From an uncultured Chloroflexia bacterium (GTDB taxonomy: Bacteria > Chloroflexota > Anaerolineae > Anaerolineales > UBA4823), in assembly GCA_963746255.1 (NCBI GenBank), contig CAVVAJ010000007.1, forward strand, positions 543,616-607,615: DNA of 64,000 bases. Reading direction: 5' to 3'. Below, piece after piece: positions 22,915 to 55,540 of the stretch. A program made the position numbers and the translations under genes. Each line of letters begins with the position of its first letter. Positions within the stretch are counted from its first letter, which is position 1. Under the pieces are notes generated by a model. That model was not told the DNA's origin and ran no database searches. It was given only the letters and a program-made list of their open reading frames with translations.

Positions 22915-25731
22915 ATGACCATGGATCAGGCTCTATTAGCCACTAAACTCTATATCCCACCTCCGCGTGGCGACCTGGTTCAGCGGGATCGTTTACTAAA
23001 AAAACTGCGCCAGGGGTTATCACGTAAACTCATCCTTGTTTCTGCACCGGCCGGCTTTGGAAAATCAACCCTGCTTAGTGAATGTGCGGCAAGTTGCGGG
23101 TATCCAGTAGCTTGGATCTCATTAGATCGTGCTGATAACAACCCTCACCGTATCATTGCCTATATGATTACTGCTGTGAAGAGTGTCTCTGCTGGTTTAG
23201 GGGATGACATCCTAGCAAGTGTCAGCGGTTCCGAACCACCAGCCATAGACGGTATCTTGACCAAATTCATCAATGATGTCGCTGCGGCAAAAACAGATTT
23301 CGTGCTGGTATTGGATGACTATCATGAAATTACCGCCGACAGTGTCCACAAAGCAGTGACTTTTATCATTGATAACCAACCTCCTACCATGCATCTCGTG
23401 ATTTCGGGACGCGCAGATCCGCCTTTCCCATTGGCGCGGCTGCGTGCACGCGGGGACTTGTTTGAAATCAGAGTGAAAGATCTGCGGTTCTCACTAGAGG
23501 AAACCGCGATGTTCATTAACGACCTGATGGGTCTTGGTCTCACTGAAGAGGATATTGCTGCCTTAGATGTCCGTACAGAGGGCTGGATTGCAGGCTTACA
23601 AATGGCTGCATTGTCGATGCAAGGCCAGGCGGATACGGCCGCTTTTGTACGTTTGTTTTCAGCTAGCCATCGTTTTATTCTTGATTATTTGGTGGAAGAA
23701 GTACTTGATGGCCAGCCGGCCGTAGTTCAAAATTTCCTTCTGCGAACGGCGGTGCTCACCCGAATGTCGGCACCGCTGTGTCAGTTTATCTTGGCTGGTG
23801 AAGACGGTTTCAGCGATGATTTTTCACAACCTATCCCGATTGAAGTACAAAAGCACCAACTGACCAACTGCCAGGATATTTTAGAATATCTTGACGAGGC
23901 AAATCTCTTTGTTATTCCGCTCGATGATCGTCGCGGCTGGTATCGCTACCATCATCTGTTTAGAGATTTACTCCTTAAACGTCTGCAAAGTAGCTCCCCA
24001 TCTGCGGAGAGAAAGCTTCATGCCGCAGCAAGTATCTGGTTTGATGAGAACGGCTTTGTTGATGAAGCGATTGACCATGCCTTTGCAGGCAGGGATTTTG
24101 AGTATGCTGCTGATCTAGTCGAGCGCTATGCACTGCAGTTCATCATTGAGAGCAGGCTGATAACACTCTCCAATTGGCTTGAGCGACTGCCCGAGTATGT
24201 TGCTGTGGATCGACCCTGGTTGTGTGTTTACCATGCGTGGACCAGGTATTGGATGGGGCAATGGGATCAGGTAGCCCCCTGCTTACTGATAGCGGAACAT
24301 AAGCTTGAGCAGATTGCGAACACGGACGCGCCCCCTCTGCGAGAGCCGAAAGATCCATCTTTACTCACGAACGATATCCGCGGGAGTATCGCTGCCATAA
24401 AAGGTTACGACACCTCTACTACGGGAGATACTCCGAAGGTGATCCGACTTTTTAACACTGCGATGGACCTGCTCGATCAAAATGATTATATGTACTCACT
24501 GGCTAGTTTGGGTTTAGGCGAGGCCTATTCATTGACAGGTAATCATCAAGCTGGTATGCAGGCATTTTCAGAAACATGCCGGAATTCATTGTTGAATGGT
24601 TACCGCTCTTTAGCGGTATCGGCAACGACGTTATTGGGCGATGAATATTCTTTCCAGGGTTACCTTTCTTCAGCTGAGAAGGTATACATTGAGGCAATCG
24701 ATAACGCGGCTGACCAAGCTGGGCAGCGGTTGCTAGCAGTGGGCTTTCCGATGGTGCGCTTGGGGGCTTTATACCTGGATTTGTGCGAGGTGGAGAGAGC
24801 CCAGCAGCTGATCCCTGAAGGGCTAGAACTGTGTCATCAATGGGGGCATCCCGGATTTCTGAGTGATGCTTATCTCAGCCAATTTAACTTGAGTCTTGCA
24901 CAAGGTGATTTAAGTGTAGCGGAAAAAGATCTCGAAAAACTAGATTCTTTGATCCGGTCTGCCCATCTTGATACTACACAGTTAACCCTAGCGGATGGCG
25001 CTCACGTACTTTTTTGGCAGGCAGCGGAGGACTGGTTGTCATTAGCTGGCTGGATCAAAGAGAATCCTTGGGATGTTGGCGGAGAAATTGTTAATATCTA
25101 CGAAGTATTGGAAGCCCTCAACTACGCACGTGCCGTAATTTATGAGGGGATAGCCCATCCAACCCGCCAATCGATTGAGCAGGGGCTGAAAATATTGGAA
25201 AGATTGCCTGCTGAAATTGGTGACAGCCGCTGGTTGAAATTGAGGGTGCAGACATTTATATTGCAGGCAGTCGGTTATCAGGCTCTTGCAAAAGGATCTC
25301 AGGCGGTTGAAGCCCTTCACAAAGCTCTAAAACTAAGTCAGGCTGCAGAATATATCTCACCATATCTTTCTGATGCGAACTATGTGGTTGAGCTACTCAA
25401 AGGCGCGGACTACCCTGGTATATCAAGTACGTACCTGGAGAAGATATTCCGGGCGGAGCACCAACGGGAATCGCGTACGCGAGTTTCTCACATACAACGT
25501 GAAAGAAAACTGCTGGAAACAGCTCACATTGGCTTGGTTGAACCGTTAAGTGAACGGGAGCTGGAGGTGCTGCGTTTGTTAATGACCAGCCTGACCAGCA
25601 CGGAAATCGCCGCGGAGTTATATATTTCCGTCAGCACTGTACGAACCCATATTAAGAATATATACAGCAAGCTGGGTGTCCACAAGCGGCTTGAGGCTGT
25701 CCAGGTCGGTCGTGATCTAGACTTACTGTAA
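22915..25731 (+). CDS. MalT-like STAND ATPase / TPR / LuxR-HTH transcriptional activator (copy 1)
   Basis: LLATKLYIP, Walker A APAGFGKST, Walker B LVLDDYH, TEGWIAGLQ, WYRYHHLF, C-terminal EPLSERELEVL..STVRTHIKNIYSKLGV. Confidence 0.95.
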   Translation: MTMDQALLATKLYIPPPRGDLVQRDRLLKKLRQGLSRKLILVSAPAGFGKSTLLSECAASCGYPVAWISLDRADNNPHRIIAYMITAVKSVSAGLGDDILASVSGSEPPAIDGILTKFINDVAAAKTDFVLVLDDYHEITADSVHKAVTFIIDNQPPTMHLVISGRADPPFPLARLRARGDLFEIRVKDLRFSLEETAMFINDLMGLGLTEEDIAALDVRTEGWIAGLQMAALSMQGQADTAAFVRLFSASHRFILDYLVEEVLDGQPAVVQNFLLRTAVLTRMSAPLCQFILAGEDGFSDDFSQPIPIEVQKHQLTNCQDILEYLDEANLFVIPLDDRRGWYRYHHLFRDLLLKRLQSSSPSAERKLHAAASIWFDENGFVDEAIDHAFAGRDFEYAADLVERYALQFIIESRLITLSNWLERLPEYVAVDRPWLCVYHAWTRYWMGQWDQVAPCLLIAEHKLEQIANTDAPPLREPKDPSLLTNDIRGSIAAIKGYDTSTTGDTPKVIRLFNTAMDLLDQNDYMYSLASLGLGEAYSLTGNHQAGMQAFSETCRNSLLNGYRSLAVSATTLLGDEYSFQGYLSSAEKVYIEAIDNAADQAGQRLLAVGFPMVRLGALYLDLCEVERAQQLIPEGLELCHQWGHPGFLSDAYLSQFNLSLAQGDLSVAEKDLEKLDSLIRSAHLDTTQLTLADGAHVLFWQAAEDWLSLAGWIKENPWDVGGEIVNIYEVLEALNYARAVIYEGIAHPTRQSIEQGLKILERLPAEIGDSRWLKLRVQTFILQAVGYQALAKGSQAVEALHKALKLSQAAEYISPYLSDANYVVELLKGADYPGISSTYLEKIFRAEHQRESRTRVSHIQRERKLLETAHIGLVEPLSERELEVLRLLMTSLTSTEIAAELYISVSTVRTHIKNIYSKLGVHKRLEAVQVGRDLDLL

Positions 25732-25803
25732 TATATCTTTATACGTTTCTCCTCTCCTCCACCTTGCTAGGGGAGATTTCTCATTCTTCAGACGTCTTTT
25801 CAT

Positions 25804-25863
25804 AATCCCCCACCGGAATACCTAATTTATAGGATGACGTTTCACCAAGGATATAGCTATCCT
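25804..25863 (+). promoter_or_regulatory. Putative MalT-like operator plus promoter (module 1)
   Basis: AATCCCC-N6-AATACCT-N6-TAGGATG-AC; -35 ATGACG (25834), 18 bp, -10 TATCCT (25858); same layout recurs after the other two MalT-like genes. Confidence 0.65.
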
Positions 25864-25921
25864 TATTATGATTTGATGGGTAAACCGCCGCAAATTTCGT
25901 CTATCGTGAAAGGCTATTCCG

Positions 25922-26167
25922 ATGTTCAGTGAGCGAGATGTTTGGGTTCAAAGTATTCGTCGCCATGAGCTAGAAGAGGCTGCAAAAGGGCATCGTTTCG
26001 CCAAGCAGTTCCCGAGGCATAATCAAGCTGGTAGATCTTTGATCCACCCACGATTACATATGCTCGGAAAGTTGTTAGTAAAGCTCGGGATTTGGTTGCA
26101 GCGTCGTTACTCAGATTCGAACTGCTTTCAGCCACCTGCTCGAAGGTTATCAGGGCAGATCCATTAA
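25922..26167 (+). CDS. Small basic hypothetical protein (81 aa)
   Basis: First ORF after the module-1 promoter; RRHELEEAAKGHR...LGKLLVKLGIWLQRRY helical pattern; GAAAGG upstream. Confidence 0.6.
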   Translation: MFSERDVWVQSIRRHELEEAAKGHRFAKQFPRHNQAGRSLIHPRLHMLGKLLVKLGIWLQRRYSDSNCFQPPARRLSGQIH

Positions 26168-26220
26168 GGGTGGCTATTCACCTAGCCCCTTTCCCGATTA
26201 TCGACAATAAGGTAGTGCCG

Positions 26221-26454
26221 ATGGCCTATGGACGTGAGTTCGACACAGAATCGATTTATAAAATAAGGGTCCGCGGGAGTATCAGCAGTGATTTGGATGA
26301 TTGGTTTGAGGGTTTCAATGTCAAGCTGCTGAGCCAAAACGAAATCATGATCACTGGACCAATCGCTGACCAGGCTGCACTGCACGGATTTTTGGCTACG
26401 CTGAGCAACCTGGGGCTAACACTCGTTCACGTGGAACTCTTGGCGAACAAATAA
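26221..26454 (+). CDS. Small hypothetical 'DQAAL' protein (77 aa; possible ACT/ferredoxin-like fold)
   Basis: YKIRVRG..DDWFEGF..ITGPIADQAALHGFL..L.NLGLTLVHV; paralogue at 38206; ATG 26221 preferred over the ORF-track start 26092. Confidence 0.8.
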   Translation: MAYGREFDTESIYKIRVRGSISSDLDDWFEGFNVKLLSQNEIMITGPIADQAALHGFLATLSNLGLTLVHVELLANK

Positions 26455-27050
26455 GTTGATAACTGTGGCGTCTATTTGTTAACCGATCATGGCTGTCGCT
26501 GCCGATACACAAGGAAGTGGTGTAGTGGGCTCTCGCGTTTCTCCAGGAAGTTAGGGTTACCCGCCAGGGCAGCATAATCAGAGGGTTATTGGTGCAGGAA
26601 TACCTTCTTTGTAAGCCCCAGGCGTTAAGGTTGTGAGGCGAGACAGAGGAGAGCGATCATAAAAAGCTTTTTGGGAAAGTCACCCCTTACCACCTCTCCT
26701 CTCAATAATTACAATTCTTATCTTCATTTTTTGTCATGTGGAACTACCAAAATCTCTTAATTTGCATAGAATTAAGCCTAAAGCGGATTTATCCAGGTTC
26801 AATCCAGAGGTCTGGGTACCTTGGGTTCAAATTGATACCTATCGCAGGTTGGTGATTTGTCGAGAGAAATACTAAGATAAAATTGGAATCTAAGCAGAGA
26901 AAAATTTCATTTATAATCGTGAAATGTTTACATCGGTTTCCATTAAGGAAATGTCCCGCGACAATAGCATCAGATTTACGTAGATAAATACGGGTGCTGA
27001 TGGTAGATTTCCAGAGATGCTAATTTGCAGAGATTATAAGGAGTGCGTTC

Positions 27051-28220
27051 ATGTCCAAAAGAGTTGCTATCTTAACCGGCGGTGGGGATGTACCGGGCTT
27101 GAACATGTGCATCAAGAGCCTGGTATACCAGCTGATCGATTCTGCTTATGAACCCATAGGCGTGCGTAAGGGCTGGCAGGGCATGATTAACTATAACCCT
27201 GCAGACCCATCTGCCTACAGCGAGCAATTCATTGAGCTAACCAAAAATATGGTGCGTTCGATTGACCGCACTCCCGGGTCATTTTTGCATTCGTCACGCC
27301 TCGATCCTCGCAAGCTGGGACCGGACAATGTGCCCGAGTTCATGGATGCAAAGGATCTTGAGTTTTTTGATTTAACAGATCACATCTTGAAAGCCATCAC
27401 GGCGTTGGGTTTTCAAGCCGTAATTGTCCTGGGCGATGACGACATGCTGAATTTTGCTGCTCATCTCAGCCAGCGGGGTGCGCCGGTGGTAGCGATTCCG
27501 AAAACGATCCATAACAATATCCTCGGGACAGACTACACTTTGGGGTTTAGTACAGGCCTAGCCCGGGGCGTATCTCTCATTCACGATTTGCGCGCGTTAG
27601 CCGGGTCACGCGAACAAATCCTGGTGGTCGAGACTTTCGCTGCTCAATCCGGCTACAGCACGTTGTTGATGTCTTGGCTAGCTGGGGCCGACCGGACCAT
27701 TATCCCAGAGGTCGAGTATGACCCGGAAAAATTATCCAATTTATTACTGCAGGATAAAAACCAGACCCCGGCAAATTACGCCGTCTTGGTGGTTACTGAT
27801 GGATCGCACCCGCAGCCAGCAAAACTGGATAAATACGCGGAATTGTTTTCAGAGCCATCTGTGAACGGCGATTTATCGCTAGGGTTCCGGGGGAATGGTA
27901 TGCTGGGGAGCGGTTTGATCGCTGCGAAACTGGTCTCCCATGTCTGTAGTGAGGAGGTGATTTACCAACCGCTTACCTATTTGCTGCGGTCTGGTTCACC
28001 GGACGGTCAGGACCTGCTCGGAGCAGCGAATTTTGCCCTCACTGCGGTTCATTTAATCAATCAAGGCAGCTTTGGGCGGATGACGGCCTTTGTACAGGAA
28101 AAAATGTGGACAGACGTGGATTTAGAGATCGTTCTTGGGGGAGTAAAAACTGTCGATATTTCAGATTGGTATGACGTGGAACGATATAAGCCGAAATTGT
28201 CTTTGATTTGGTCAGCCTAA
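27051..28220 (+). CDS. 6-phosphofructokinase (PfkA) family protein with degenerate catalytic motifs
   Basis: ILTGGGDVPGLN, FLHSSR, GTDYTLGFST, IIPE, YLLRSG; but GDDD, PKTIHNN and ETFAA replace GGD(G/D), PKTIDND and (M/F)GR. Confidence 0.85.
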   Translation: MSKRVAILTGGGDVPGLNMCIKSLVYQLIDSAYEPIGVRKGWQGMINYNPADPSAYSEQFIELTKNMVRSIDRTPGSFLHSSRLDPRKLGPDNVPEFMDAKDLEFFDLTDHILKAITALGFQAVIVLGDDDMLNFAAHLSQRGAPVVAIPKTIHNNILGTDYTLGFSTGLARGVSLIHDLRALAGSREQILVVETFAAQSGYSTLLMSWLAGADRTIIPEVEYDPEKLSNLLLQDKNQTPANYAVLVVTDGSHPQPAKLDKYAELFSEPSVNGDLSLGFRGNGMLGSGLIAAKLVSHVCSEEVIYQPLTYLLRSGSPDGQDLLGAANFALTAVHLINQGSFGRMTAFVQEKMWTDVDLEIVLGGVKTVDISDWYDVERYKPKLSLIWSA

Positions 28221-28256
28221 CAGTTTGAAGGTTTCGTTGGTGTTTGGAGAAGGCAT

Positions 28257-28988
28257 ATGAGCAGTAATGGCAGTAGCAATAATCATATCGTTAATCTAGT
28301 CGATATCACTAAAAACTTTCCCGTTGGGGATCGCGAGATAATTGTCTTGAAAGGTATATCCTTCGCTGTCGAACCCGGTGAATTCCTCTCCATAGTTGGA
28401 CCCTCTGGAAATGGTAAATCAACTTTGCTGAACATGATCACCGGCATCGATCGGCCAACATCTGGAGAGGTCATCGTTACTGGCCGTAAGGTCCATAATA
28501 TGAGCGAGAACAAGCTCGCCGCGTGGCGTGGCCAACATGTCGGTATTGTCTTCCAGTTCTTTCAAATGCTGCCTGCGCTGAGTTTGATCCAGAACATTAT
28601 GCTTCCGATGGACTTTGCGAAGAAATATTCACGTAAGGAAAAGAGTAAGCGTGCCATGGAGTTGCTGGAGATCGTTGACTTGGCTGACCAGGCGGAAAAA
28701 CTTCCCGGTATGGTTTCCGGTGGCCAGCAGCAGCGGGCCGCGATTGCTCGTGCGCTGGCGAATGATCCAGAGATCATTGTTGCGGATGAACCCACCGGAA
28801 ACCTGGATACACGTACCGCTAACGTTATATTTGATCTTTTCCTGAAATTAGCTGATCAAGGCAAGACGCTCATCATGGTGACACATAATAAGGAGTTGTC
28901 GCGCCGCGTCCCTCGGGTAGTCGAAATTATCGATGGCAAAATCACCCGCGATGAATTTATCGGCGGAGCGGTCTGGACAGGGTATTAA
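28257..28988 (+). CDS. ABC exporter ATP-binding protein (LolD/MacB-type)
   Basis: GPSGNGKST, VFQFFQML, VSGGQQQRAAIARAL, ADEPTGNLD, MVTH. Confidence 0.93.
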   Translation: MSSNGSSNNHIVNLVDITKNFPVGDREIIVLKGISFAVEPGEFLSIVGPSGNGKSTLLNMITGIDRPTSGEVIVTGRKVHNMSENKLAAWRGQHVGIVFQFFQMLPALSLIQNIMLPMDFAKKYSRKEKSKRAMELLEIVDLADQAEKLPGMVSGGQQQRAAIARALANDPEIIVADEPTGNLDTRTANVIFDLFLKLADQGKTLIMVTHNKELSRRVPRVVEIIDGKITRDEFIGGAVWTGY

Positions 28989-29012
28989 AGACAAGAGGGA
29001 ATAGTTGACGCC

Positions 29013-31404
29013 ATGGGTGTTCTAAAGTCAAAAGTCTTTCGTGATATCTGGTCGCATAAAGGGCGTACCTTACAAATTGTGCTGATCATTGGTTTAAGCG
29101 CCGGAGCGATCGGGATGATTATGAGCACGCGCAGCGTTTTCATCCCCGGAATGCAGGATATCTGGCGGTCAATGAACCCGGCCATGATCAATATTTACAC
29201 CGGTTATGTGAGCGATGATGAGTTGTATGTATTAAAAGATATTGCTGGTATTACGGAGATTGAGGGTAAGAGCAGTACCTATATCGAGTGGCGCAAGAGC
29301 CCTGAGGAGGATTGGCGTCAGGCTGGTCTTACCACCCGGCCAGATTATGAGAACCAGATCCTTAATCAACTGGAATTGGTAAACGGGCAGTGGCCGGAGG
29401 GTGAAACACTTGCCGTTGGTCAGGATGCCGAATCCTTCTTCGGTATATCCCCGGGTGAGACGATCACTATAAAACTGAACGATCGCGAAATGCAGGTAAG
29501 TTTGGTCGGGACGGTGTACGACCAGCTTGTGCAACCCGCATTCTTAGGGGGGATGGCACAGTTGTATGCGAGCAGTGACTTATACGAAAACTTCGTCGGT
29601 GTGTATGGCTACAATCAGATCTTACTCTCCGCAGCGGTCTACGATGAAGAAGAAGTTGGTCTTTTAGCAGACAATGTTCAAGAGAAATTAGAGAAGCAAG
29701 GCTATGATTCTGGGCGATTAATCGAAGACCCAAATAAACATCTCTTCCAGGATCAAATGGATGGTGTTTTCCTGGTGCTTTCTGTGCTGGGTTTTTTCTC
29801 GCTTGCTTTAGGTTTGCTGCTTGTGTACAACACTGTCAATGTCTTAATTGCCCAACAGGTCGACCAGATCGGGGTCATGAAAGCCGTTGGTGCCCGTACC
29901 TGGCAAATCCTGCGTTTATATTTTGTCATGGTCTTAATATACGGCTTCCTTGCACTCGCAGTGGCACTGCCAATGGCGGTATTTGGATCGAATGCAATCA
30001 TGACTTGGTTATCTACAAGTTTTGGAGCAGAAACCTTCAGTTTTGAAGTTTCACCGTCAGCGCTATATTTAATGGTTTTTCTCACTCTCGTCGCCCCGGT
30101 CCTGGCATCCCTGGTGCCGATCTTTGCCGGTTCCCGCATTACAGTTCGCGAGGCCATCAGCACGTACGGTTTAACAATAAAACCTGGATTATTAGAGCGC
30201 ATGCTTAATAGTGGTCGTCATATCTCGCGTCTGATGTTAATCACCATTAGCAACACCTTCCGTCACAAACGCAGAGTGATTCTAATTGAGATTGGCTTGG
30301 TACTTAGTGGTGTCATGTTCATGACCGTTGTCGCAGTCCAGGATTCTATTCAATATACAATCTCCGATGTGTTGCTGTCTATTATGAATGCTGATATCAC
30401 GATGGTCTTCAACCAACCCCAAAGAATGGAATATATCGAGGAGTTGACTCTCGCTCGCTCAGATATCAAAGCTGTCGAGATGTGGGGATTGACGAGTGCA
30501 GAAATTCGTCCTGCGGGCCAAGAAGAATCCGACGATGCTGAGAGTGTACAGTTGTTTGGTGTACCTCTCCCGACGCAGCTTTATGGAGCAAGAATCCGCG
30601 CCGGCCGCTGGTTGAATCCAACTGATACGTATGCGATTGTCGTCGACCAGGAGTTGGCTGAAGAACTTGATGTCGGCGTTGGGGATTGGGTGACTATTAA
30701 AATATGGGGAGCATCGTGAGACTGATTGGCAGATTGTTGGTCTGTCTTTCTTCCCCCTCATTAGTGATATTTCAAACGTGCCCCGCGATGTTTTAATGCG
30801 AGATTTAGGGTTTGTAGGTCGCGGTCAAGCGGTATTCATCCAAATCATCGATAACAGCCCGGCAAACCAAACGGCTGTGGCAAAGGATTTGCGCGAGTTT
30901 TACAAATCTAAGGGGATTGATGTAAACCCTGTCCGTGGTATATTTGGATTTGGAGATACTCGAGCCGAGACCGCTTCAGCGATCGTCGGCCAAATTAATT
31001 TCCTGCTGATCTTGTTGGGAGTCATGGCGGTAGTTATCGGGGCAGTAGGTAGTATCGCCTTGAGCGGGGCTTTATCTTTGAGTGTTATGGAGCGTACGCG
31101 GGAGATAGGTGTTATGCGGGCAATCGGTGCTTCATCGTGGACGATTTCCCGACTTTTTATCGGTGAAGGCTTGATCCTCGGTTGGTTGAGCTGGTTGATC
31201 GCGCTGCCGCTGAGCATACCAGCAGGTAAACTAATGGTCCAGGCAATTGGAACTGCCCTACAGAGTGAATTGTTTTATAATTTTGAACCACGCGGTGCAC
31301 TGATCTGGTTGGGAATCATAACGGTTCTCTCCATTATTGCCAGTTGGCTGCCAGCTCGGAGTGCAACACGCATCAGTGTCCGTGAGAGCTTGGCGTATCA
31401 ATAA
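29013..31404 (+). CDS. FtsX/MacB-like ABC exporter permease, interrupted by one +1 frameshift at about 30699-30709
   Basis: ORFs 29013-30719 and 30778-31404 join into about 796 aa if one base is removed from AAAATATGGGG (..IKYGEHRETDWQIVG..); QIGVMKAVGA and ERTREIGVMRAIGA repeats. Confidence 0.85.
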
Positions 31405-31421
31405 TAAGGAGCAATCCATCA

Positions 31422-32609
31422 ATGAAAAAACAGTATTTCTTATCTCTAATAACCAGCCTGGTGCTGTTGACCCTACTCACAGCCTGTGATTCAATTATGC
31501 CAGCATCGACTACTGAGGCGGAATCGACCGAGATTCCGATCGTTATCGCCGATACCGAGATCATCTCCGAGGGCCGGCTAGTACCGAACCAATACGTGAA
31601 CCTGTCTTTCAAATCTGGCGGGCAGGTGGTTGAATTGCTGGTTGATGAAGGGGAAGTTGTGGATGAAGGCCAGGTGATGGCTCGACTGGGAAATCGTGAA
31701 CAGCTCGAGGCTGCAGTTGCCGCTGTACAAGTTGAGCTTCTGAATGCTGAGCAGGCCCGTGACAAGCTTTTTGAAAATTCTGATGTCTCCACTGCCCTAG
31801 CCTACCAGGCGGTTACGGATGCGCGCGATGCGCTGCGCGATGGAGAGCGATATAAGAACAACCTTGAAGCTGGTAGTCGGCAAACCTCTATCGACACAGC
31901 TAGGGCAGATGTCATCGTTCTGACAGAGAAATTGAACGATGCGCGCGAAGATTATAAAGGATACGAGAATAAGACCGATGATAATCTCAAACGCGCGGCG
32001 CTGTTATCCAAATTTGCTGACGCCCAGCAAAAATACGACAATGCGGTTCGTTTACTCAACAACCTGCAGGGTTCACCGAGCGAGTTAGATACGGCAATCG
32101 CGGATGCGAATGTATCGGTTGCTGCTGCCTCATTGGCTCTCGCTGAGCAGGAGTATGAGAAGGTAAAGGATGGCCCTGACCCGGCTCAATTAACAATAAT
32201 CGAAGCCCGTATTGCCGCCGCTGATGCGAACCTAGCCGCGGCAGAATCTGCCTTGGATAATATTGAATTAGTTGCTCCGATTCCTGGCACGATTGTGGAT
32301 TTGAACCTCAAAGTCGGTGAACAGGTGAGCCCGGGCCAACCGGTCGTTGTGCTGGCAGATTTCAACCATTGGGTAGTTGAAACCGATGATTTGACAGAAA
32401 TCGAGGTCCCGGACATTTCCATTGGCCAATCAGTTACCGTCACTCCGGATGCGCTCCCCGATCTGGAACTTACCGGAACGGTTGAGTCAATCAAGGATAT
32501 ATATGAGGAAAAGCGCGGCGATATCACATACACTGCTCGGATCATATTAGATGACAGTGACCCCCGTCTTCGTTGGGGGATGACTGTCGTTGTAGTTTTC
32601 AAGGAGTAA
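31422..32609 (+). CDS. HlyD/MacA-family membrane fusion (periplasmic adaptor) lipoprotein
   Basis: Lipobox LTAC, lipoyl half-motifs GQVVELLVDEGE and LVAPIPGTI, long coiled coil, EEKRGDITY..LRWGMT. Confidence 0.9.
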   Translation: MKKQYFLSLITSLVLLTLLTACDSIMPASTTEAESTEIPIVIADTEIISEGRLVPNQYVNLSFKSGGQVVELLVDEGEVVDEGQVMARLGNREQLEAAVAAVQVELLNAEQARDKLFENSDVSTALAYQAVTDARDALRDGERYKNNLEAGSRQTSIDTARADVIVLTEKLNDAREDYKGYENKTDDNLKRAALLSKFADAQQKYDNAVRLLNNLQGSPSELDTAIADANVSVAAASLALAEQEYEKVKDGPDPAQLTIIEARIAAADANLAAAESALDNIELVAPIPGTIVDLNLKVGEQVSPGQPVVVLADFNHWVVETDDLTEIEVPDISIGQSVTVTPDALPDLELTGTVESIKDIYEEKRGDITYTARIILDDSDPRLRWGMTVVVVFKE

Positions 32610-32646
32610 GCCTTGTTTGTGATGATTTTTAGTCGAGGGGACAATC

Positions 32647-33891
32647 ATGGTCGGTAGTACGCGTAACTCCAAGGGTGGCGTGATAGTAGCAGTGTTTCTC
32701 ATTGCTTTGTGCTTAATCGCTAAACCAAACCCGGCTGCCGCGGCATATTCTCCCCGAACCGCACAACCTAAACCTATCGGGATTCCCGAAATACAATCCC
32801 CAATCCAGGTGGAAGGCCGGATTGTGCCTGCCAATTATGTTCAGCTGTCACCACGAATCAGCGGGCACGTTACAGATTTACTGGTCCAAGAAGGTGATCT
32901 GGTGCAAGCTGGAACTACCCTTATGGTTGTGGGTGATCGACAGCAGCTGATCGCCGATATACTAACGGCAAAGTACGAACTAATCGAAGCTCAGCAGGAA
33001 TTAGATGACCAGTACAAGACTGCTGAGTTAAGGCTAGCGGAAGCAAAACAAAAGTTAGCGGTTGCCGAGAAGGCTGAAGTCTTTGCCGCCGATAAAGTGA
33101 GGAGTACAGCCGCTCAACCGCCGGAATGGCATATCGAACAAGCGCGAATCAATCTGCAGCTTGCAGAGAACGCGTTAGAACGAGCGGAAGATGATATTCA
33201 AAAAGTTGAGAAACGAAAGAAGAACAAAGAAGGTATTTGGTATTGGTTTTTAGATGATAAGGATTTCCGTAACATCCTTCGTGGGCTCGAGCGAGTGAAG
33301 ACCAACGCTGAACGCCGTGTTATCGATGCGCGCGAAAAGTACGAAGATTTGCAGAAACCAGTCGATTCGGTTGACTTGGCGTTAGCGCAGAGCGATTGGG
33401 AAACAGCCCAAGCCAACGTCGCAGAAGCCGCTCGTGAGGTCGCTAAGTATCAAAATGGGCCTGACCCAGAAGTAGTCGCGCTGTTAGAAAGCCACATCTG
33501 GGCTGCTGAGGCTCGTCTAATTGCTGCCGAAGCTAGGTTAAGTGACCACGAGGTGGTCGCGCCGCTATCTGGGAAGATTATTGATCTGAAGCCAAAAGCC
33601 GGCGAGTGGGTGAACACTGGAGAGCCTGTGGTAGTGATCGCTGATGACACAGAATGGGTAGTTGAAACGGAAGACCTAACCGAGATCGATGTGATTAACA
33701 TACAAGAGGGGCAAGCAGCAACCGTGGAGCTGGATGCCTTTCCGGATGTAACCCTTCTCGGTGAAGTTGATTCGATCAGAGACCTATCCGAGGAGAAACG
33801 CGGCGATGTAACCTACACGGTTGTCTTGAACCTGCTAGAGACAGATCCTCGTCTGCGCTGGGGGATGACAACTCTCGTGACTTTTGAATGA
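32647..33891 (+). CDS. Second HlyD/MacA-family adaptor (tandem paralogue)
   Basis: SGHVTDLLVQEGD, VVAPLSGKI, EEKRGDVTY..LRWGMT. Confidence 0.9.
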   Translation: MVGSTRNSKGGVIVAVFLIALCLIAKPNPAAAAYSPRTAQPKPIGIPEIQSPIQVEGRIVPANYVQLSPRISGHVTDLLVQEGDLVQAGTTLMVVGDRQQLIADILTAKYELIEAQQELDDQYKTAELRLAEAKQKLAVAEKAEVFAADKVRSTAAQPPEWHIEQARINLQLAENALERAEDDIQKVEKRKKNKEGIWYWFLDDKDFRNILRGLERVKTNAERRVIDAREKYEDLQKPVDSVDLALAQSDWETAQANVAEAAREVAKYQNGPDPEVVALLESHIWAAEARLIAAEARLSDHEVVAPLSGKIIDLKPKAGEWVNTGEPVVVIADDTEWVVETEDLTEIDVINIQEGQAATVELDAFPDVTLLGEVDSIRDLSEEKRGDVTYTVVLNLLETDPRLRWGMTTLVTFE

Positions 33892-35295: not shown

Positions 35296-38043
35296 TTGGA
35301 TCCGTTGCTAGCTACGAAACTCTATAAACCTACATTACATCATCCCATCGTCCCACGTCCGGGCTTAGTTCAACGGCTAAACGAAAGCCTCAATGGGAAG
35401 ATGTCATTACTATCCGCTCCCGCTGGTTTTGGGAAAACGACTTTATTGTGTGAGTGGATTAACGAGTCACACTTGAGAGCTGCCTGGTTATCACTAGATG
35501 AGAACGATAATGATCTCATTCAATTTTTCTCCTACTTGGTAGGGGCTTTACAATCATTGGATAAATCGATTGGAATAGGTGTTAAACAGCTTCTCGAGGT
35601 AAACCCTACTCAACCGGCGGAAGTAATCCTGACCGAGCTGATAAATGATATGAGCTATGCGGCCCAAAATGCAGTTCGGAGGTTTGACCTCGTTGGCGAA
35701 AGTGATCAACAACAAAACTCTATCCTCGTCTTAGATGATTATCATTTAATCGAAAATAACGCTATCCATTTGGCGATCGCATTTTTTGTGGAACATGTCC
35801 CGGAAAGCTTGCATGTGGTTATCTCCAGTCGGGCAGACCCGCCTATCCCAATGGCCAGATTAAGAGTCCGACGACAGCTTGTTGAAATTCGCCAGTCTGA
35901 CCTACGCTTTACTACACAAGAAATCCAAGATTTCCTAGTCATCGTAATGGGTATGCATCTGACATCAACAGATATTCAGACACTGGATAAAAGCACTGAA
36001 GGGTGGGTAGCAGGCTTGCAAATGGCTGCGCTATCTATGCAGGGTCGTGATGATATCTCTAGCTATATTGCGGATTTCACCGGAACGAATCGTTTCATCC
36101 TGGATTACCTGGTGGAGGAAGTGCTTTCTCGCCAACCAGCCGAAGTGCAGGAATTTTTGGTGAAATCCGCAATTTTGGAACGCATGAATGGGTCGCTTTG
36201 TGAAGCGGTCACCGGTATACCCGCAAACAGTCAAATTCTACCGCGCTTGGAAAGACAAAACTTATTTATTGTACCTTTAGATAACGAGCGGGTATGGTAT
36301 CGGTTTCATCGATTGTTTTCTGATCTTTTAAGAAAACGATTGCTTCAATTCCATTCTCGGGATGTATTGTCGTTGTATAAGAAAGCGAGTAATTGGTTTG
36401 CCGAAAACAACTTTATTCCTGAGGCAATAGATTATGCAATCAGTGCTGAGGATTATGATCAAGCCGTAGAATTAATCGCTGGGATTATTGAGACCACCAT
36501 GATGCGCAGTCAGCTAGCCACATTGCTGCGTTGGATGGAAAAGATCCCTGTCCGATGCATTACCCAGCATCCCATAGTATGTGTTCATTATGCCTGGGCA
36601 TTATTCTTGGACGGGCAATCTTGGGACAAAGTCTGCTATTGGTTGGATAACTCTGATTGGGGTGATTCGGTGGTATCAGGGATTGCTTCTGCGCTGTATG
36701 CCCTCGCCGCAATCTATCAGGGACGTATTTCGGAAGCAGCACAGATGTCGCGCCAGTTGCTGCGTAATGGAAATGAGCAAGGTGCCTTCCTGCGCACCCT
36801 GGCTTCTTGGAACTTGGGTGTATCTTTAATTGCCCAAGGCAAGGAGGATGAAGGCGAAGACTTGCTGGAACAAGCAATCCGAATCAGCCTCGATTCCGGA
36901 AATATCTTGGTTGCTGTCATGGTTCTGTGTAATTTGGCTGACCAGCACCGGAAACATGGCCGTCTTTACCAGGCTGCTCGTTTGTACAATCAAAGTCTTG
37001 ATCTGGCAGTGGATTTCGAAGGCCATCATCTGCCGGTTGCTGGCCAGGCTTGGATTGGGCTTGGATATCTTGAGGGCGAATGGAACAATCTTGATCTAGC
37101 CGAAAATCATATCAAGAAGGGAATCTCATTGATCGAAGGTTGGGGAAAAGTTGCGGCGATTGACGGCCACCTGTATCTATCTAGAATACATATGATGCGC
37201 GAGGATTATGAAGCTGCCTATTCCGCCCAGCTGAAAGCCAGGGCGTTAGCGGAGCTGTTCGATGTTACCGAGATAGATGATTTATTCGTTGATTTGCAGC
37301 AAGCGCGTCTCTGGTTAGCGGAAGGGAATTATTCTGCCGTCAATCAATGGGTGGATGAGAGAGGTTTACGCACTTCTAAAAATGGTACGGAGGCACTGAG
37401 CGCGGGACACTATTTCCACACGCGTTTATGGAAATATGAGATCGTTATCCTTGCCAGATTACTGATCGTCGAAGGGGATTGGGCGGCAGCCCAGAGGTGG
37501 CTGGCCTTGGCATATCAAGAGACCCAAAAGAGCAAAAGCATAGGATTGTTGATCGAGGTTTTGATCTTACAAGCGATCGCACTTATTCATTCGGGAAATC
37601 ATGATAAGGCCCAAAGTGCGTTAGAGGATGCACTCACTTTGGCTGAGCCCGGTGGGTATATCCGCATTTTCCTTAACGAGGGAGAAACTGCGAAGGCTCT
37701 GCTGAAACAGATCAATCAGCGAGATCCCAGAAGAGAGTATGTGAACTTACTCTTAAGCCAATTCAAACAGCCTAGAATTGCACACCGCACGGAGAGCACT
37801 GAGGGATCTGTGTTGATGGCAAAAAATACAGCTAGCGAGCGAATACTTGTTGACCCATTAAGTGAGCGAGAGCTGCAGATCCTGCGTTATCTGGTTACCG
37901 AATTATCAACTCCGGAGATCGCTCATGAGCTAGTTATCGCCGTGAGTACAGTACGGTCGCACGTGAAGAGCATCTATTCTAAATTGGGTGTACATAACCG
38001 GTATCAGGCAGTGGATAGTGCCAGAAACTCACATCTGATCTAA
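35296..38043 (+). CDS. MalT-like STAND ATPase / TPR / LuxR-HTH transcriptional activator (copy 2)
   Basis: LLATKLYKP, APAGFGKTT, LVLDDYH, TEGWVAGLQ, WYRFHRLF, DPLSERELQIL..STVRSHVKSIYSKLGV; TTG start. Confidence 0.95.
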   Translation: MDPLLATKLYKPTLHHPIVPRPGLVQRLNESLNGKMSLLSAPAGFGKTTLLCEWINESHLRAAWLSLDENDNDLIQFFSYLVGALQSLDKSIGIGVKQLLEVNPTQPAEVILTELINDMSYAAQNAVRRFDLVGESDQQQNSILVLDDYHLIENNAIHLAIAFFVEHVPESLHVVISSRADPPIPMARLRVRRQLVEIRQSDLRFTTQEIQDFLVIVMGMHLTSTDIQTLDKSTEGWVAGLQMAALSMQGRDDISSYIADFTGTNRFILDYLVEEVLSRQPAEVQEFLVKSAILERMNGSLCEAVTGIPANSQILPRLERQNLFIVPLDNERVWYRFHRLFSDLLRKRLLQFHSRDVLSLYKKASNWFAENNFIPEAIDYAISAEDYDQAVELIAGIIETTMMRSQLATLLRWMEKIPVRCITQHPIVCVHYAWALFLDGQSWDKVCYWLDNSDWGDSVVSGIASALYALAAIYQGRISEAAQMSRQLLRNGNEQGAFLRTLASWNLGVSLIAQGKEDEGEDLLEQAIRISLDSGNILVAVMVLCNLADQHRKHGRLYQAARLYNQSLDLAVDFEGHHLPVAGQAWIGLGYLEGEWNNLDLAENHIKKGISLIEGWGKVAAIDGHLYLSRIHMMREDYEAAYSAQLKARALAELFDVTEIDDLFVDLQQARLWLAEGNYSAVNQWVDERGLRTSKNGTEALSAGHYFHTRLWKYEIVILARLLIVEGDWAAAQRWLALAYQETQKSKSIGLLIEVLILQAIALIHSGNHDKAQSALEDALTLAEPGGYIRIFLNEGETAKALLKQINQRDPRREYVNLLLSQFKQPRIAHRTESTEGSVLMAKNTASERILVDPLSERELQILRYLVTELSTPEIAHELVIAVSTVRSHVKSIYSKLGVHNRYQAVDSARNSHLI

Positions 38044-38098
38044 TCAGATAAACCATAATCATCACCAGCACCTAACTGTCTCCGCGGTGTACCGCTGA

Positions 38099-38158
38099 AA
38101 ATCCCCCGAAAATGTCCCCTATTTGGGGATGACATCTCCCCCAGCACGATAATATAGT
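38099..38158 (+). promoter_or_regulatory. Putative MalT-like operator plus promoter (module 2)
   Basis: AAATCCC-N6-ATGTCCC-N6-GGGGATG-AC; -35 ATGACA (38129), 18 bp, -10 TATAGT (38153); GGGGATGA matches the E. coli MalT-box core. Confidence 0.68.
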
Positions 38159-38205
38159 TGGAATATATTTGAAGTCACGGAATTGTCGCGAGCAAATTTA
38201 TAAGG

Positions 38206-38472
38206 ATGTCAAAGATGGTATCGGATCCATACTGCAGAAGTGTACAAGCTTACCAAATTAAAGTCCTCGGGTGTATCGATGGATCCTGGTCTGGTTGGTT
38301 TGATGGTCTAACCATCGACATTGAGTACGCTCCTGATGGATCAGCAATTACTACACTCTCAGGCCACATCACCGATCAGGCTGCCCTGCGTGGGGTGCTC
38401 GTAAAGCTGTGGGATCTCAACCTACCATTACTTTCTGTGAGATTATTGCCCACTACACCGGTCAACTATTGA
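38206..38472 (+). CDS. Small hypothetical 'DQAAL' protein (88 aa), paralogue of 26221-26454
   Basis: YQIKVLG..WSGWFDGL..TTLSGHITDQAALRGVL.KLWDLNLPLLSV. Confidence 0.82.
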   Translation: MSKMVSDPYCRSVQAYQIKVLGCIDGSWSGWFDGLTIDIEYAPDGSAITTLSGHITDQAALRGVLVKLWDLNLPLLSVRLLPTTPVNY

Positions 38473-38554: not shown

Positions 38555-39139
38555 ATGTCGATGAAAATTATTGCAGATATGATTACTTTTAGTCGGTTAT
38601 TACTATCAATCTGCTTGATCTGGTTTGGTATTGAATTCGGTGTCCAAGCTTTGCCGTGGGTGGTTTGGATTATGATCCTCTCTTGGACTGGTGACAGCCT
38701 TGATGGTGCTTTTGCTCGACATAGCGGAATGAAGAAACAAACCTGGGTCGGAGCCCATGATTTACACTTCGATATGACAATTGCGGCGGCATTGCTGCTG
38801 TACCTGGCTTTAGCTGGTTTAGTGCCGCTGCCCAGAGCAATATTTTATTTACTGATCTGGGCTGTTGTCTTCTGGCGTTTCGATATAAACAGCACCCTCG
38901 GGAAATTGTTCCAGGCACCTATCTATGGCTGGTTTATTGTGGTTTCTATTCGTGAGACTCCGAGCAGCGGATTATGGATTTTAGTTTGGTTGGTGGTAGC
39001 CATTATTCTCACCTGGCCGAGATTTCCTGATCAGATCATCCCGGAATTTGTTGATGGTATGGCAGAGATGTGGCAGCGACTTGTCTCCCACCTTCGGAAT
39101 GGGAATGTTGCTGACCAATCCAAGAACTCACCCACCTAA
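38555..39139 (+). CDS. CDP-alcohol phosphatidyltransferase family membrane protein
   Basis: ADMITFSR and signature DSLDGAFAR...GAHDLHFD; multiple TM helices. Confidence 0.8.
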   Translation: MSMKIIADMITFSRLLLSICLIWFGIEFGVQALPWVVWIMILSWTGDSLDGAFARHSGMKKQTWVGAHDLHFDMTIAAALLLYLALAGLVPLPRAIFYLLIWAVVFWRFDINSTLGKLFQAPIYGWFIVVSIRETPSSGLWILVWLVVAIILTWPRFPDQIIPEFVDGMAEMWQRLVSHLRNGNVADQSKNSPT

Positions 39140-51499: not shown

Positions 51500-52253
51500 C
51501 CATGAGCGGAGCAACAAAAGGCAGGGATGATCGTGAAATTAATTCCACCGTCATCAGCCAATGATCAACAAACCGGGCCAACCGATCATATAGCGTAAGC
51601 CTGCTTTGAAGTCTGTCCAGACGGTTGTTTTTTCTGCATCTACCGCATTTCGTTCTGGTTGGTGGACGTGGATGAAGAACAGCGGCAGGATGGCGAATAA
51701 AGCTGTGATCACATCAATGGATAGGATGCCCTGCATGGACAGCATTCCCAACAATAAGGCGCCCAACGGTGCAGCAACCACGTTCAGCCCACCTTCGAGC
51801 AGTTGGTTGAAGTCCCTGAATGCGAGTCAGGTGTTCGACCGGTACCATCAGGGAGGTGGAAGCGTGCATGGCGTTGGTGTGGAATGCGCCTGCCAAAGAG
51901 CGGATGAAGAGGATGACAAAAATATGCCAGACTTCGACAATATCCAACGCAAACAGAACTGCTAGAACGATGGTTGCCAGTGCCTCGATGCTATCGGCCA
52001 ATAACATAATCCGGCGACGATTCCAGCGGTCGACCAGGGTGCCTATGAACGGGCCGAGGACTACGTTGGGCAGCATACCGACCAGGGTGGCGGTCGCCAG
52101 CACAGTGGCTGAACCCGTCTGGACTGTCAGGTGCCAGATCAGAGCGAATTGCACCAGTTGGCTGCCTAGAATGGAAAGCGCCTGTCCACTCCAGATGGTG
52201 AAGAAAGTAGTTTTCCAGGGTTTGTTGTCTTGGACTGAAAATTGTGTTGTCAT
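51486..52253 (-). pseudogene. MFS transporter (MefA-like), frameshifted and 3'-truncated
   Basis: FFTIWSGQALSILGS, GTLVDRWNRRRIM; homology continues across frames (GLNVVAAPLG, GINFTIIPAF, LMVKDYF) and stops at about 51486. Confidence 0.8.
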
Positions 52254-52402: not shown

Positions 52403-53214
52403 TTAATAGGTTATTTCACTGTCTCGCTCTGGCATGAGAACCTCGGTAACGCCGGTTCCTTTTTTGAACATCGTACGCCGATTTAGAACAACGATGACCA
52501 CTGCCGCGAGTGCGAAAAGGAGGTTGTCCCAGGGTTGAGCATCGGGAAAGATGGGATTCATCATCTGAAAGTGATACAGGTAAGCGATCAACAGGCTGCC
52601 GCGAGGCGCTATTGAACATGGGAGTGAGGATGACGGAGAGAGCGATGACACCGCCAAAGATATGGCACGGCGGACCAGGAGCTATATTGAAGCCCACTCT
52701 ATCAGGAACGCAGGGATAGTGCCAGGCTGCGCAAATGATGCCCACGATTAAACCGGCCCAAAAGGGAGCCATCTTGCGCTGTAGCAGAGGCATGGCGATC
52801 CCTCGCCAGCCGAACTCCTCGAGTCGTACCCAGGAAAAAGGCATGCGCCAGCGCTGGAAATACCAGATACCAGGGGGAAAAGGGAAACGGATCGCTGAGG
52901 GTGCCATTCAATGCGGCGCCAAGGTAAGCGATGGCAGGAATGCCCAGGAGCAAGAACAACCACCACACCTTGGGCATCCGCCATAAGGTCAATCGCCGAA
53001 AGAAGCTGCCCAGCCCTTTCAGTCCGTAATTTCGCAAGACCAGGAATATGCCAACAATGCCGGGCGAATACACCGCGAGGATAAATAAGGGATTGCTTGA
53101 GCTGATCTCACCAAAGATTGCGACCATCTGGTCGGTGAAAAGGATCAGCAGTGCGGCGATCCCCCAGGTGAGCCCAAAAGTAAGGGTCAGGAACGGAACG
53201 AGATTGGTTTTCAT
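52403..53214 (-). pseudogene. CPBP/CAAX (Abi) intramembrane protease, multiple frameshifts
   Basis: EEFGWRG, AAWH and GSLLIAYLYH motifs are split among three overlapping ORFs (52702-53214, 52416-52907, 52403-52657); AGGAG RBS. Confidence 0.82.
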
Positions 53215-53341: not shown

Positions 53342-53400
53342 AGTTTATAGTTTTATGCGGCTTTTGTCCCCTATCGGAAGATAGGTTGGGAGGGTAGGTT
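53342..53400 (-). promoter_or_regulatory. Putative MalT-like operator plus promoter (module 3)
   Basis: Minus strand AACCTAC-N6-AACCTAT-N6-ATAGGGG-AC; -35 GGGACA, 17 bp, -10 TAAACT. Confidence 0.62.
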
Positions 53401-53404: not shown

Positions 53405-53429
53405 AAAAAAAGAGCCGTGAAAACGGCTC
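53405..53429 (-). terminator. Intrinsic terminator after MalT-like copy 3
   Basis: Minus strand GAGCCGT-TTTC-ACGGCTC followed by T7. Confidence 0.85.
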
Positions 53430-53451
53430 AAACTTGTTGGGAGTAGATGGC

Positions 53452-55540
53452 TTAAAAGCCCAATTCCCTGGCCCGTGCACTCGCCTGTGAACGATTACTG
53501 ACCCCCAGTTTCTGCAGAACGTTATGGACATGCCATTTGGCAGTCCCCACACTGATAAACAATTCGTCAGCGATTTCCTTGTTGGTTTTCCCCGCCACGA
53601 TCAAACCTAATACGCGCAATTCTTGCTCGCTGAGTGGGTCAGGTAATTGGTCGAGGGGCGAGGGAGGAGAATCGCTTCCAGCTTGCTGAATGCTCAGGAT
53701 AGCGTCCACAAGTTCGGGGGCGGCCTGACGCGCTTTTGGCAGCAAATCGAGGAGCGCTTCCCCTTCATCCAAAAAGATACGGATAAAACCTTCGGGTGCG
53801 GCCAATTCCAACGCTTGGGATAGCCAGTCTACGGCGGCTGGGATGTCTTTTTCGGCGCAATGGAGTAAGGCCATCAGAATCATGACCTCTATGCCGGTTC
53901 GAACGTGACCTTGAGCCTGCCCTTGCTTAAGCAGAGCATCCAGGATGGACGGCACATTTTCGCGATCGCTTGTTTTCAGCAGGATGCGCACAAGGGTCAG
54001 ATCCACGAATTCGTGCGTTTGCCCGACGCGGGCAGCCTGATATTCCAACGCCCATTGTGTTGCTGCCTCTTCTTGCCCCGTTAAGAGCTGCAGGTTTGCG
54101 ATGTGGGCTGCGGCGAGCATGGACAAGCGTTCCACCCCGAAGCCTTGTATGATCGTGTTCACTTCTTGGATGGCGTCAAAGGCATCCGATACGCGCCCTT
54201 GATAGGCGTGTACACGGGCGAGATAGGATAGCCCTAAAATCACGTCATCTATCAAGCCGCCTCGGCGGGATAACGCAATGCCATTTTCCAGAAATTCCTC
54301 GGCGGCGGAGAGATCGTTTCGCTCGAGGGCGATGCTGCCTAGAATAGACTCTGCCAAACCGAGTGGCGGTAATCGTTTGCCCCTTGCGATTTGTATCGCT
54401 TTTTGGCAGGCTTGTTCTGCTAAGCTTAATTGTCCCTGGCTGATCTGCACCTGTGCTGCGGCACAAAGCGAATGAATAACAAGGAAAAGTACCCCGGCAG
54501 ATTGCGCTTCTTCGCTTGATCTCAAATAGTTCTGCACGGCAAGCTTAGTTTGTCCGGAGAGTTCATATGCCAACCCAAGACTAGAAAATCCGCGTGCATG
54601 CTGCAAATGATGCTCTTGTGGAATTCGTTCCTGGGCAAAAGTGATCTTTTCGATGGCTTGTTGCGTATCCCCACGCACGGAGGCGATTGCACCGTGGTAC
54701 AACGATGCAAGTGCCAGCATTTGCTCTTTTTTAGGGGAGGTGGGCAGGGCGTGCAAGGTTTCCTCAGCCTGGTCAATTTGCTTTTCAGCGAGGTCAAAGC
54801 GCCCTAAAAGGTAGAGAATGTGCGAAGCGTTCAAACTCAATGCCGGGCGGTTTTGAAAGGCTTGTGGAGGGAGAGCATCCAGCCAGGTTGTATACAACGT
54901 CAGATTTCCACCCGACCAAATGGCGTCTTATTTTAATCCCCGATCGATGACATCCGCCAAAAGTTCATGATCGCCACTTGCGATGGCATATTGCACCGCT
55001 TCAGAGAGAAACTCATTCTTTTCGTCTCAGTCATTTGTCTGCGGGCCCTTAGACGTGCCAAAGGTAATGAGGGATCTGACGCGTGATGATAACCAGATGT
55101 GCCTGATGGGGTTGATGCTCGAGAAAGTATTCCAGCATCTCGTGAATGAGCAGGTTGGTGATGATATGGTAATCCTCAAGGACGAGGATGGTTGGCTCTT
55201 CAAGGCGGGCAAGGGCGTTGATGACTTCATCCAGAATATTTTGGAAAGGTGGGAGTTGCGGCGCGTCCAAAAGCTCCAGAATGTTATCCAGTTCAAAGTC
55301 ACTGATCCGATTCCAGGCGCTTACCCAGTAGGACAGGAAGCGTGCTGGCTCATTGTCGCTTTTTTCGAGAGATAGCCAGATATGCTGTGTTGATTCCGGA
55401 GAAGAGTTGAGCCAACTGGTTATTAGGCTGGTTTTCCCATAGCCGGCAGGTGCGGAGACCAGCGTCAGTTTTCGCTGTTCGATCAAACCTGCTTGCAGTT
55501 GGTCCAAAAGCCGTGGGCGTATTACGCCGTTCAGACCCAT
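53452..55540 (-). pseudogene. MalT-like STAND-LuxR activator (copy 3), disrupted
   Basis: APAGYGKTS and LVLEDYH in 55049-55540; frameshift at about 55078; about 0.5 kb internal deletion at about 55025 (QMTE|EKNEFLSEAV); in-frame TAA at 54928-54930; intact TPR + LuxR HTH in 53452-54897; N-terminal LLxTKL missing. Confidence 0.88.

Follow-up and report, generated by a model that had tools for sequence, protein, structure and literature searches.

Repeated MalT-like regulator cassettes in a Chloroflexota genome appear to carry private promoter arrays and a conserved small protein

Introduction

The closest described relatives of the genes reported here are the activator MalT of Escherichia coli and the LALs, LuxR-family regulators that are large and bind ATP. 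In the excerpted text of PMC7567727, the box recognized by E. coli MalT is GGGGA(T/G)GAGG and is placed over the −35 hexamer. The same excerpt describes MalT of Actinoplanes sp. SE50/110 (ACSP50_3915) as one regulator with 17 start sites and a palindromic motif, TCATCC-5 nt-GGATGA, that overlaps the −35; the genes under this regulator are non-maltose genes (PMC7567727). Here we analyze three MalT-like regulator loci in a 64,000-nucleotide stretch ("the window") of an uncultured Chloroflexia bacterium (Anaerolineales; UBA4823; assembly GCA_963746255.1, contig CAVVAJ010000007.1, positions 543,616 to 607,615 of the forward strand). Each is followed by a 35-bp element built of short half-sites, which a first-pass annotation of the sequence had read as the operator of a promoter belonging to that regulator, with cargo genes beyond it.

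Anaerolineae-type Chloroflexota carry MalT-like regulators in very large numbers. We find that regulator, promoter array and cargo recur as a unit in this genome and in its relatives, usually with a small protein of about 85 residues, here called sp, as the first cargo gene. Each cassette is probably a self-contained inducible unit in which the regulator activates the neighboring promoter in the manner of MalT. As judged from its sequence, the system would pair a MalT-type activator with a promoter in a form that is new, multiplied, privately addressed and accompanied by a conserved protein without a name. A search of open-access papers turned up nothing on cassettes in Chloroflexota that combine a MalT-like gene with a small partner protein.

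Results

The three regulators in the window (Table 1) fit the MalT/LAL family of STAND-LuxR proteins by their NOD, TPR-like sensor and helix-turn-helix (HTH) domains. AAA_16, the STAND NOD, was matched in regulators 1 and 2 and in the N-terminal piece of regulator 3, with a readable P-loop (GFGK[ST]T or GYGKTS), and both TPR_MalT (PF17874; E = 1.5e-39, 2.7e-65 and 1.7e-48) and GerE (PF00196; E = 2.4e-17, 7.7e-17 and 5e-18) were matched across all three. The NCBIfam MalT model NF003420 aligns with regulator 1 over model positions 2-896 of 903 (431.3 bits) and with regulator 2 over nearly its full length (442 bits); both lie under the 537-bit equivalog cut-off for MalT proper. In regulator 2, residues 4-430 align with E. 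coli MalT of known structure (chain 8bob_C; E = 2.6e-55). There are about 8000 relatives of regulator 2 at E ≤ 1e-30, and, among the proteins considered as orthologues of regulators 1 and 2, P0176-P0178 are 96%, 52% and 50% identical.

The first-pass annotation had listed three MalT-like genes. Genes 1 and 2 are intact, but gene 3 is a pseudogene with frameshifted cargo. Regulator 3 can be aligned with a paralogue at residues 18-193 and 356-890, using three reading frames; it lacks about 160 codons (paralogue residues ~194-355) and has at least two frame changes. The whole genome holds 11 MalT-like loci, of which 6 are intact and 5 are split or fragmentary. No maltose genes were found among the annotated neighbors of the window regulators, as had been stated before.

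The elements lie at 25804-25838 (+), 38099-38133 (+) and 53400-53366 (−), 35 bp each, and start 72, 55 and 51 nt past the stop codons (25731, 38043 and 53452). These distances agree with the earlier figure of about 50-75 bp, and the coordinates, the letters and the one-base register shift of copy 2 all read as the annotation gave them. Its three-half-site layout also stands, although it overlooked the fourth half-site that is usual in the family. The proposed −35/−10 pairs fared unequally: in copy 2 the pair has 10 of 12 consensus matches; in copy 1 TATCCT is present, but a consensus promoter scan favors TTCACC-17-TATTAT at 25841-25869 (TATTAT at 25864-25869); in copy 3 the pair stays under the scan threshold. 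Leader RNA structure in the three cassettes showed nothing notable (z = 0.11, −0.26 and 0.43).

Copy 2 contains GGGGATGACA at 38125-38134, which matches 8 of 10 positions of the MalT box and overlaps ATGACA-18-TATAGT; the MalT-box-like GGGGATGA pointed out in the first pass resembles the GGGGA(T/G)GAGG given in the excerpt of PMC7567727. Copy 1 has TAGGATGACG, and copy 3 is without a MalT-box core. Arrays of the group that we call class A end in GGGGATGAC or GGTGATGAC and match, on the evidence of that excerpt, both the MalT core GGA(T/G)GA and its placement on the −35 (PMC7567727). Since a MalT-like box lies across the copy 2 promoter and the MalT precedents are activating, each regulator is taken to be an activator. 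The opposite sign has to be considered, because a regulator whose proximal half-site covers the −35 could also repress, or limit its own output, until an inducer releases it; the copy 2 promoter, already fair at 10 of 12 matches, may need no activator. However, the characterized relatives with sites at this place, E. coli MalT and Actinoplanes MalT, activate according to the excerpted account (PMC7567727), and most of the −35 hexamers are poor, with that of copy 3 failing the scan, as expected for activator-dependent promoters. Repression therefore appears quite unlikely.

To place the window copies in their family, we gathered 97 sp loci: this genome supplied 9 and its relatives, 22 in number, the other 88. 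An open reading frame (ORF) with a LuxR-type HTH ends upstream of sp, on the same strand and within 1.4 kb, in 64 of the 97, and in 58 of these 64 loci the gap from regulator to sp is 61-333 nt. The common layout of the gaps is two direct heptamers, an inverted one at the −35 and usually a fourth, direct one, with a spacing of 11-13 bp (peaks at 12, 11-12 and 11 bp in the 32 best loci). In these 32 loci we counted 26 cases of a TAnnnT that begins 27-29 nt past the start of the inverted site, and 3 loci lack one in the interval of 20-36 nt; the offsets of the window copies (28, 28 and 27 nt) match this peak. We scored the repetition as four sites of 7 nt each (two direct, one inverted and one further direct) spaced by 10-15 bp and compared it with dinucleotide shuffles. 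The score averaged 28.9 in 60 gaps versus 24.8 in shuffles (mean z = 2.4), and 25 of the 60 loci scored above each of their 20 shuffles, against an expectation of about 3; with a three-site score, 15 of 60 beat all 40 shuffles (about 1.5 expected). Terminator-like hairpins often separate the regulator from the array. The same layout was found at a regulator without sp (C1:508069), ahead of a gene for a PEP-utilising enzyme. Thus the order put forward in the first pass, a regulator followed by its own promoter with half-sites, the last of them on the −35, and then by cargo, recurs in the genome and its relatives. The array architecture is real across the family, and by their sequence all three window copies fit its geometry.

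Measured one at a time, the window copies differ in how far their internal repetition exceeds chance. Copy 2 has a four-site score of 32, against 24.6 ± 1.9 in shuffles (reached by 0 of 20), whereas copy 1 scores 25 against 25.6 (reached by 15 of 20). For a second control we picked 399 ORFs of 300 aa or more at random from the same genome and scored the 200 nt that follow each: the score of copy 2 was reached by 0.25% of them, that of copy 1 by 68% and that of copy 3 by 50%. Nine MalT-like genes taken as a set stood above these controls (27.3 versus 25.5; Mann-Whitney p = 0.008). Because copies 1 and 3 are ordinary in self-similarity, their case rests on conservation and geometry.

Such scores speak for a reading in which copies 1 and 3 are chance resemblances or dead relics and copy 2 is the sole working operator. 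Cassette 3 adds to this in that its regulator and cargo are both broken, and in cassette 1 the array lies about 380 nt ahead of sp1. Comparison with relatives points the other way. Between copy 3 and the array of a locus in another genus (L081), whose regulator has an identical recognition helix (GTAKWHVHNVLQKL), 31 of 35 bases are the same; the 4 differences are confined to the spacers and leave the heptamers intact, although the flanks have diverged. The terminator-like hairpin behind regulator 3 is also kept in this relative, which retains an sp gene downstream where cassette 3 has none. Copy 1 aligns with the arrays behind three related regulators (one of this genome, at C7:404669, and L082 and L040), and all three window copies hold the 27-28 nt offset to TAnnnT that is typical of the family. 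We therefore regard it as unlikely that copy 2 is the only true operator. When orthologues of regulators 1 and 2 were sought for footprinting, the best among the relatives' loci was about 33% identical, and one metagenome scan gave 29%. To judge from sequence, the first two cassettes look functional and the third looks like a decaying relic.

Half-sites agree inside each cassette and differ between cassettes, and they vary with the class of recognition helix: (i) T[FL]RTHTKNIF goes with ATCAC(C/A) ... GGTGATGAC ... TCACCA (half-site ATCACC); (ii) THTQNIY with TCATCA(C/T); (iii) THTKSIY or SHVKSIY with ATCCCC ... GGGGA(T/C)GAC; (iv) TVKGHN[RQ][KR]IF with ACAACAC ... AGTGTCT; (v) TVKGH[TI][AS]NI with ACCATAC; and (vi) GTIKVHAHNIY with CTATATC. 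No extra copy of any 45-nt window array was found elsewhere in the 5.0-Mb genome at up to 12 mismatches. With a half-site of their own and an array that occurs once per genome, the cassettes look insulated, and the pattern is what private regulator/operator pairs would be expected to look like. When 250 nt of upstream sequence were read by eye for seven regulator genes, no matching half-sites were seen; together with the lack of extra array copies, this does not support autoregulation.

The first-pass annotation went further and proposed a readable helix-to-operator code. Site similarity did correlate with the recognition helix (Mantel r = 0.35, reached by 0 of 2000 permutations), but it correlated better with a control helix, alpha4 (r = 0.455; the other control helices gave 0.22 and 0.09), and for pairs below 55% domain identity the recognition-helix value dropped to 0.056. 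We therefore rejected this correlation as evidence for a readable recognition-helix code. As the control helix correlates better, covariation of helix and site, though real as a pattern, is inseparable from co-inheritance on the present data, and the identity of the binder rests instead on adjacency, likeness to the MalT box and uniqueness of the arrays.

A correlation with the non-contacting alpha4 at least as good as that with the recognition helix is also what pure co-inheritance predicts if another protein binds the arrays, or if their promoter architecture has nothing to do with the regulator, and adjacency is merely inherited gene order. A shared factor would, however, be expected to leave a shared motif, and the half-sites are private, consistent over 3-4 sites per cassette and present once per genome. 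Moreover, the class-A sites resemble MalT boxes, and no other DNA-binding gene is a constant neighbor. Either form of this alternative is thus very unlikely in our judgment.

Several further features of the arrays and leaders were noted in relatives. In G004 (C1:144000-190000, loci L093-L095), G013 (C18) and G022 (C3), at least four cassettes follow one another in tandem on one strand, 7-9 kb apart, and recognition helix and half-site change from cassette to cassette. In the leaders of the cassettes that we call class B (L005, L010, L029, L083, L015 and L009), a long-range stem, CCUUGUAC...GUACAAGG, lies between the −10 and the start of sp; it takes in a Shine-Dalgarno-like AGG, its paired bases vary (ACCUGUAC/GUACAGGU in L015), and its alifold energy is −7.1. 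This stem may gate translation; the window leaders show nothing similar. The regulator-sp gap of L015 (G023) is 472 nt long and has three tandem units of about 125 nt upstream of the array. At L021 (G012), the second direct and the inverted site, followed by T8, form a textbook terminator hairpin, CCTACCGAAA...TTTCGGTAGGTTTTTTTT, so that operator and terminator may overlap in some cassettes.

The sp proteins are about 85 aa long and share the motif YxIxVxG..W..W..G...TxLxG..DQAALxGxLxxLxDLGLxLxSV. No Pfam or NCBIfam model matched the family, which has 7,701 database clusters at E ≤ 0.001, all "hypothetical" where named. Nine copies are present in this genome; five stand directly behind a MalT-like gene, and three further sp genes lie 1.7-5.6 kb farther along the same strand from such genes. 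Counting this genome, 23 of 41 close genomes carry sp, with up to 21 copies per genome, as do 18 of 24 genomes in the family to which the window belongs and 41 of 201 genomes sampled from the phylum. The first pass had listed the small protein as cargo and had missed that it is a single conserved family and a near-constant first gene.

An AlphaFold2 model of sp2 (mean pLDDT 76) has the order strand-strand-strand-helix-strand. Its best structural matches are 6dzs_A (Z 8.1), TM1266 (Z 7.8), Lrp RAM (Z 7.4), the MgtC C-terminal domain (Z 7.0) and RelA ACT (Z 6.7), all middling values in a range common for unrelated models, and the best Foldseek match is an ACT domain (E = 0.0096, TM 0.48). In these best, middling matches the predicted fold resembles the ferredoxin-like ACT/RAM domains. 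Those domains have a beta-alpha-beta-beta-alpha-beta order and a ligand site where two subunits of the dimer meet; the sp model has four strands and one clear helix instead of two, and no sequence family matched.

Fused forms are rare; we found 54 long proteins that fuse sp to typical cargo families. In other Chloroflexota families, sp is fused in frame to multipass membrane proteins of the DUF4386 (L096, L097) or DUF6326 (L099, twice) type, with the fusion gene directly behind a MalT-like gene; such fusions may hint at the partners of sp. Over 49 pairs, divergence of sp tracks that of the sensor part of the neighboring regulator (r = 0.70; 0 of 2000 permutations), more tightly than sensor and HTH track each other within the same protein (r = 0.48), which fits either co-evolution or simple co-duplication of the unit. 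When regulator 2 (residues 1-850) and sp2 were modeled as a complex, the score was 0.00 against a mark of 0.32, which gave no verdict.

Cargo beyond sp varies. In this genome it includes PEP-utilising enzymes, MFS and MacB/HlyD-type transporters, CPBP proteases, a sulfatase with its radical-SAM maturase and a Nudix protein; in the relative G004 it includes DUF4386, DUF6326, CPBP, a Zn-dependent dehydrogenase and GNAT proteins. Against PADLOC models for anti-phage defence, the regulators matched weakly and solely in their HTH region, and sp1, sp2 and the 194-aa membrane protein did not match. The FtsX/MacB-type permease gene at 29013-31404 is split into ORFs 29013-30719 and 30778-31404; one contig from an RNA run is one base short at 30699, and misassembly or strain variation may account for the split. 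An 81-aa ORF at 25922-26167, in the leader of about 350 nt between array 1 and sp1, was compared by jackhmmer with the ORF before sp at C1:332428, which it had seemed akin to, and no link was found. As it has no Pfam or NCBIfam family and no paralogue, it may not be a gene.

Table 1. Features of the three window cassettes (positions in the 64,000-nt window)
Feature	Position	Strand	Description	Evidence
Regulator 1	22915..25731	+	Intact MalT-like STAND-LuxR, 938 aa	Pfam AAA_16, TPR_MalT and GerE
Array 1	25804..25848	+	AATCCCC (25804), AATACCT (25817), inverted TAGGATG (25830), possible fourth site TCACCAA (25842)	
−10-like TATCCT	25858..25863	+	Starts 28 nt after inverted-site start; 18 nt after ATGACG	
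sp1	26221..26454	+	77 aa from ATG 26221, "DQAAL" family	phmmer and profile matches to 8 paralogues
Regulator 2	35296..38043	+	Intact MalT-like STAND-LuxR, 915 aa	Pfam AAA_16, TPR_MalT and GerE
Array 2	38099..38143	+	AATCCCC (38100), TGTCCCC (38113), inverted GGGGATG (38125), fourth site ATCTCCC/TCCCCCA (38134-38143)	
Promoter-like ATGACA-18-TATAGT	38129..38158	+	−10 starts 28 nt after inverted-site start	Consensus scan, 10/12 matches
sp2	38206..38472	+	88 aa, same family as sp1	
194-aa membrane protein	38555..39139	+	Weak CDP-alcohol phosphatidyltransferase match	Pfam E = 1.2e-4, 22.9 bits (cut-off 22); NCBIfam weak
MFS transporter fragments	51554..52253	−		Pfam MFS_1 and MFS_3 on 52253-51714
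CPBP (Rce1-like) membrane protease gene	52416..53214	−	Two overlapping frames, ORFs 53214-52702 and 52907-52416	Pfam Rce1-like on second
−10-like TAAACT	53342..53347	−	Starts 27 nt after inverted-site start	
Array 3	53366..53400	−	AACCTAC, AACCTAT, inverted ATAGGGG, then AC	
Terminator-like hairpin and T-run	53412..53429	−	After regulator 3	Hairpin kept in L081
Regulator 3	53452..55540	−	Pseudogene: N-terminal 163 aa (55540-55049), C-terminal 481 aa (54897-53452)	

Discussion

We propose that these cassettes would work as follows. On meeting its inducer through the TPR-like sensor, the regulator's STAND ATPase would oligomerize, and the oligomer would bind cooperatively to the 3-4 phased 7-bp half-sites, 11-13 bp apart, behind the regulator's own gene. 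Of these, the inverted half-site proximal to the promoter lies across a weak −35, where RNA polymerase would be recruited as it is by MalT at the mal promoters. The operon induced in this way would usually encode the ~85-aa sp first, followed by cargo that varies and consists largely of small membrane proteins, CPBP proteases, transporters and redox or transferase enzymes. What the sequences show is the gene order, the domains, the layout and geometry of the arrays, and their conservation; the oligomerization of the regulator, its binding to the adjacent array, activation in place of repression and the insulation of the cassettes from one another are inferred.

Besides the position over the −35, which would suit a repressor as well, four points weigh against this proposal. 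First, the internal repetition of copies 1 and 3 does not exceed chance. Second, the proposed promoter of copy 3 stayed below the threshold of the sigma-70 consensus scan, and its regulator is dead, while the association between helix and site is no stronger for the recognition helix than for the control alpha4. Third, no regulator was found in the 1.4 kb upstream at 33 of the 97 sp loci; contig ends cut 4 of these 33. Fourth, 22 sequencing runs contain part of the window and one of them is RNA; over 22500-40500 this RNA run gave contigs that were short, had a depth of 1-6 and showed no usable transcription starts. Activation of the neighboring promoter by each regulator nevertheless remains the reading that we consider probable.

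A bolder extension concerns sp itself. Because sp is a near-constant first gene, occurs fused to membrane proteins and tracks the sensor of the neighboring regulator, it might be a part of the switch: a cytoplasmic ACT-like adaptor that links DUF4386, DUF6326 or CPBP membrane proteins to the sensor, giving a three-part membrane-to-promoter device with feedback that would have been copied many times, each copy having an operator specificity of its own. We offer this role tentatively and think it rather doubtful. If it were true, these genomes would hold a natural library of orthogonal activator/promoter pairs.

Were the cassettes activated as proposed, the target promoter and operator of each regulator could be read straight from the genome, so that regulons and inducers become testable one cassette at a time. 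The sp family is itself abundant and unnamed, and it is tied to these switches and, through fusions, to DUF4386/DUF6326 membrane proteins. Private operator/activator pairs would serve synthetic biology as orthogonal parts.

The cassettes share with E. coli MalT the STAND NOD-arm, the TPR-like sensor and the LuxR HTH, as well as arrays of short asymmetric boxes with the proximal box on the −35, where copy 2 reads GGGGATGA, close to the GGA(T/G)GA core, as far as the excerpted description goes (PMC7567727). Unlike E. coli MalT, each regulator apparently has one adjacent target in place of a regulon, no mal genes lie near, and the paralogues in a genome are numerous, each having a half-site of its own and a constant small partner as first gene. 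Actinoplanes MalT is, in the same excerpt, likewise a MalT-like activator outside the enterobacteria with non-maltose targets and GGATGA over the −35. That regulator has 17 starts and a palindrome there, whereas here we find one promoter per regulator and a direct-direct-inverted(-direct) array at 11-13 bp (PMC7567727). The Streptomyces LAL pathway regulators are also large ATP-binding LuxR-family activators that sit beside the genes they control. They occur in antibiotic biosynthetic clusters, whereas the genes beside the regulators described here encode membrane proteins, CPBP proteases, transporters and detoxification-type enzymes, with sp first.

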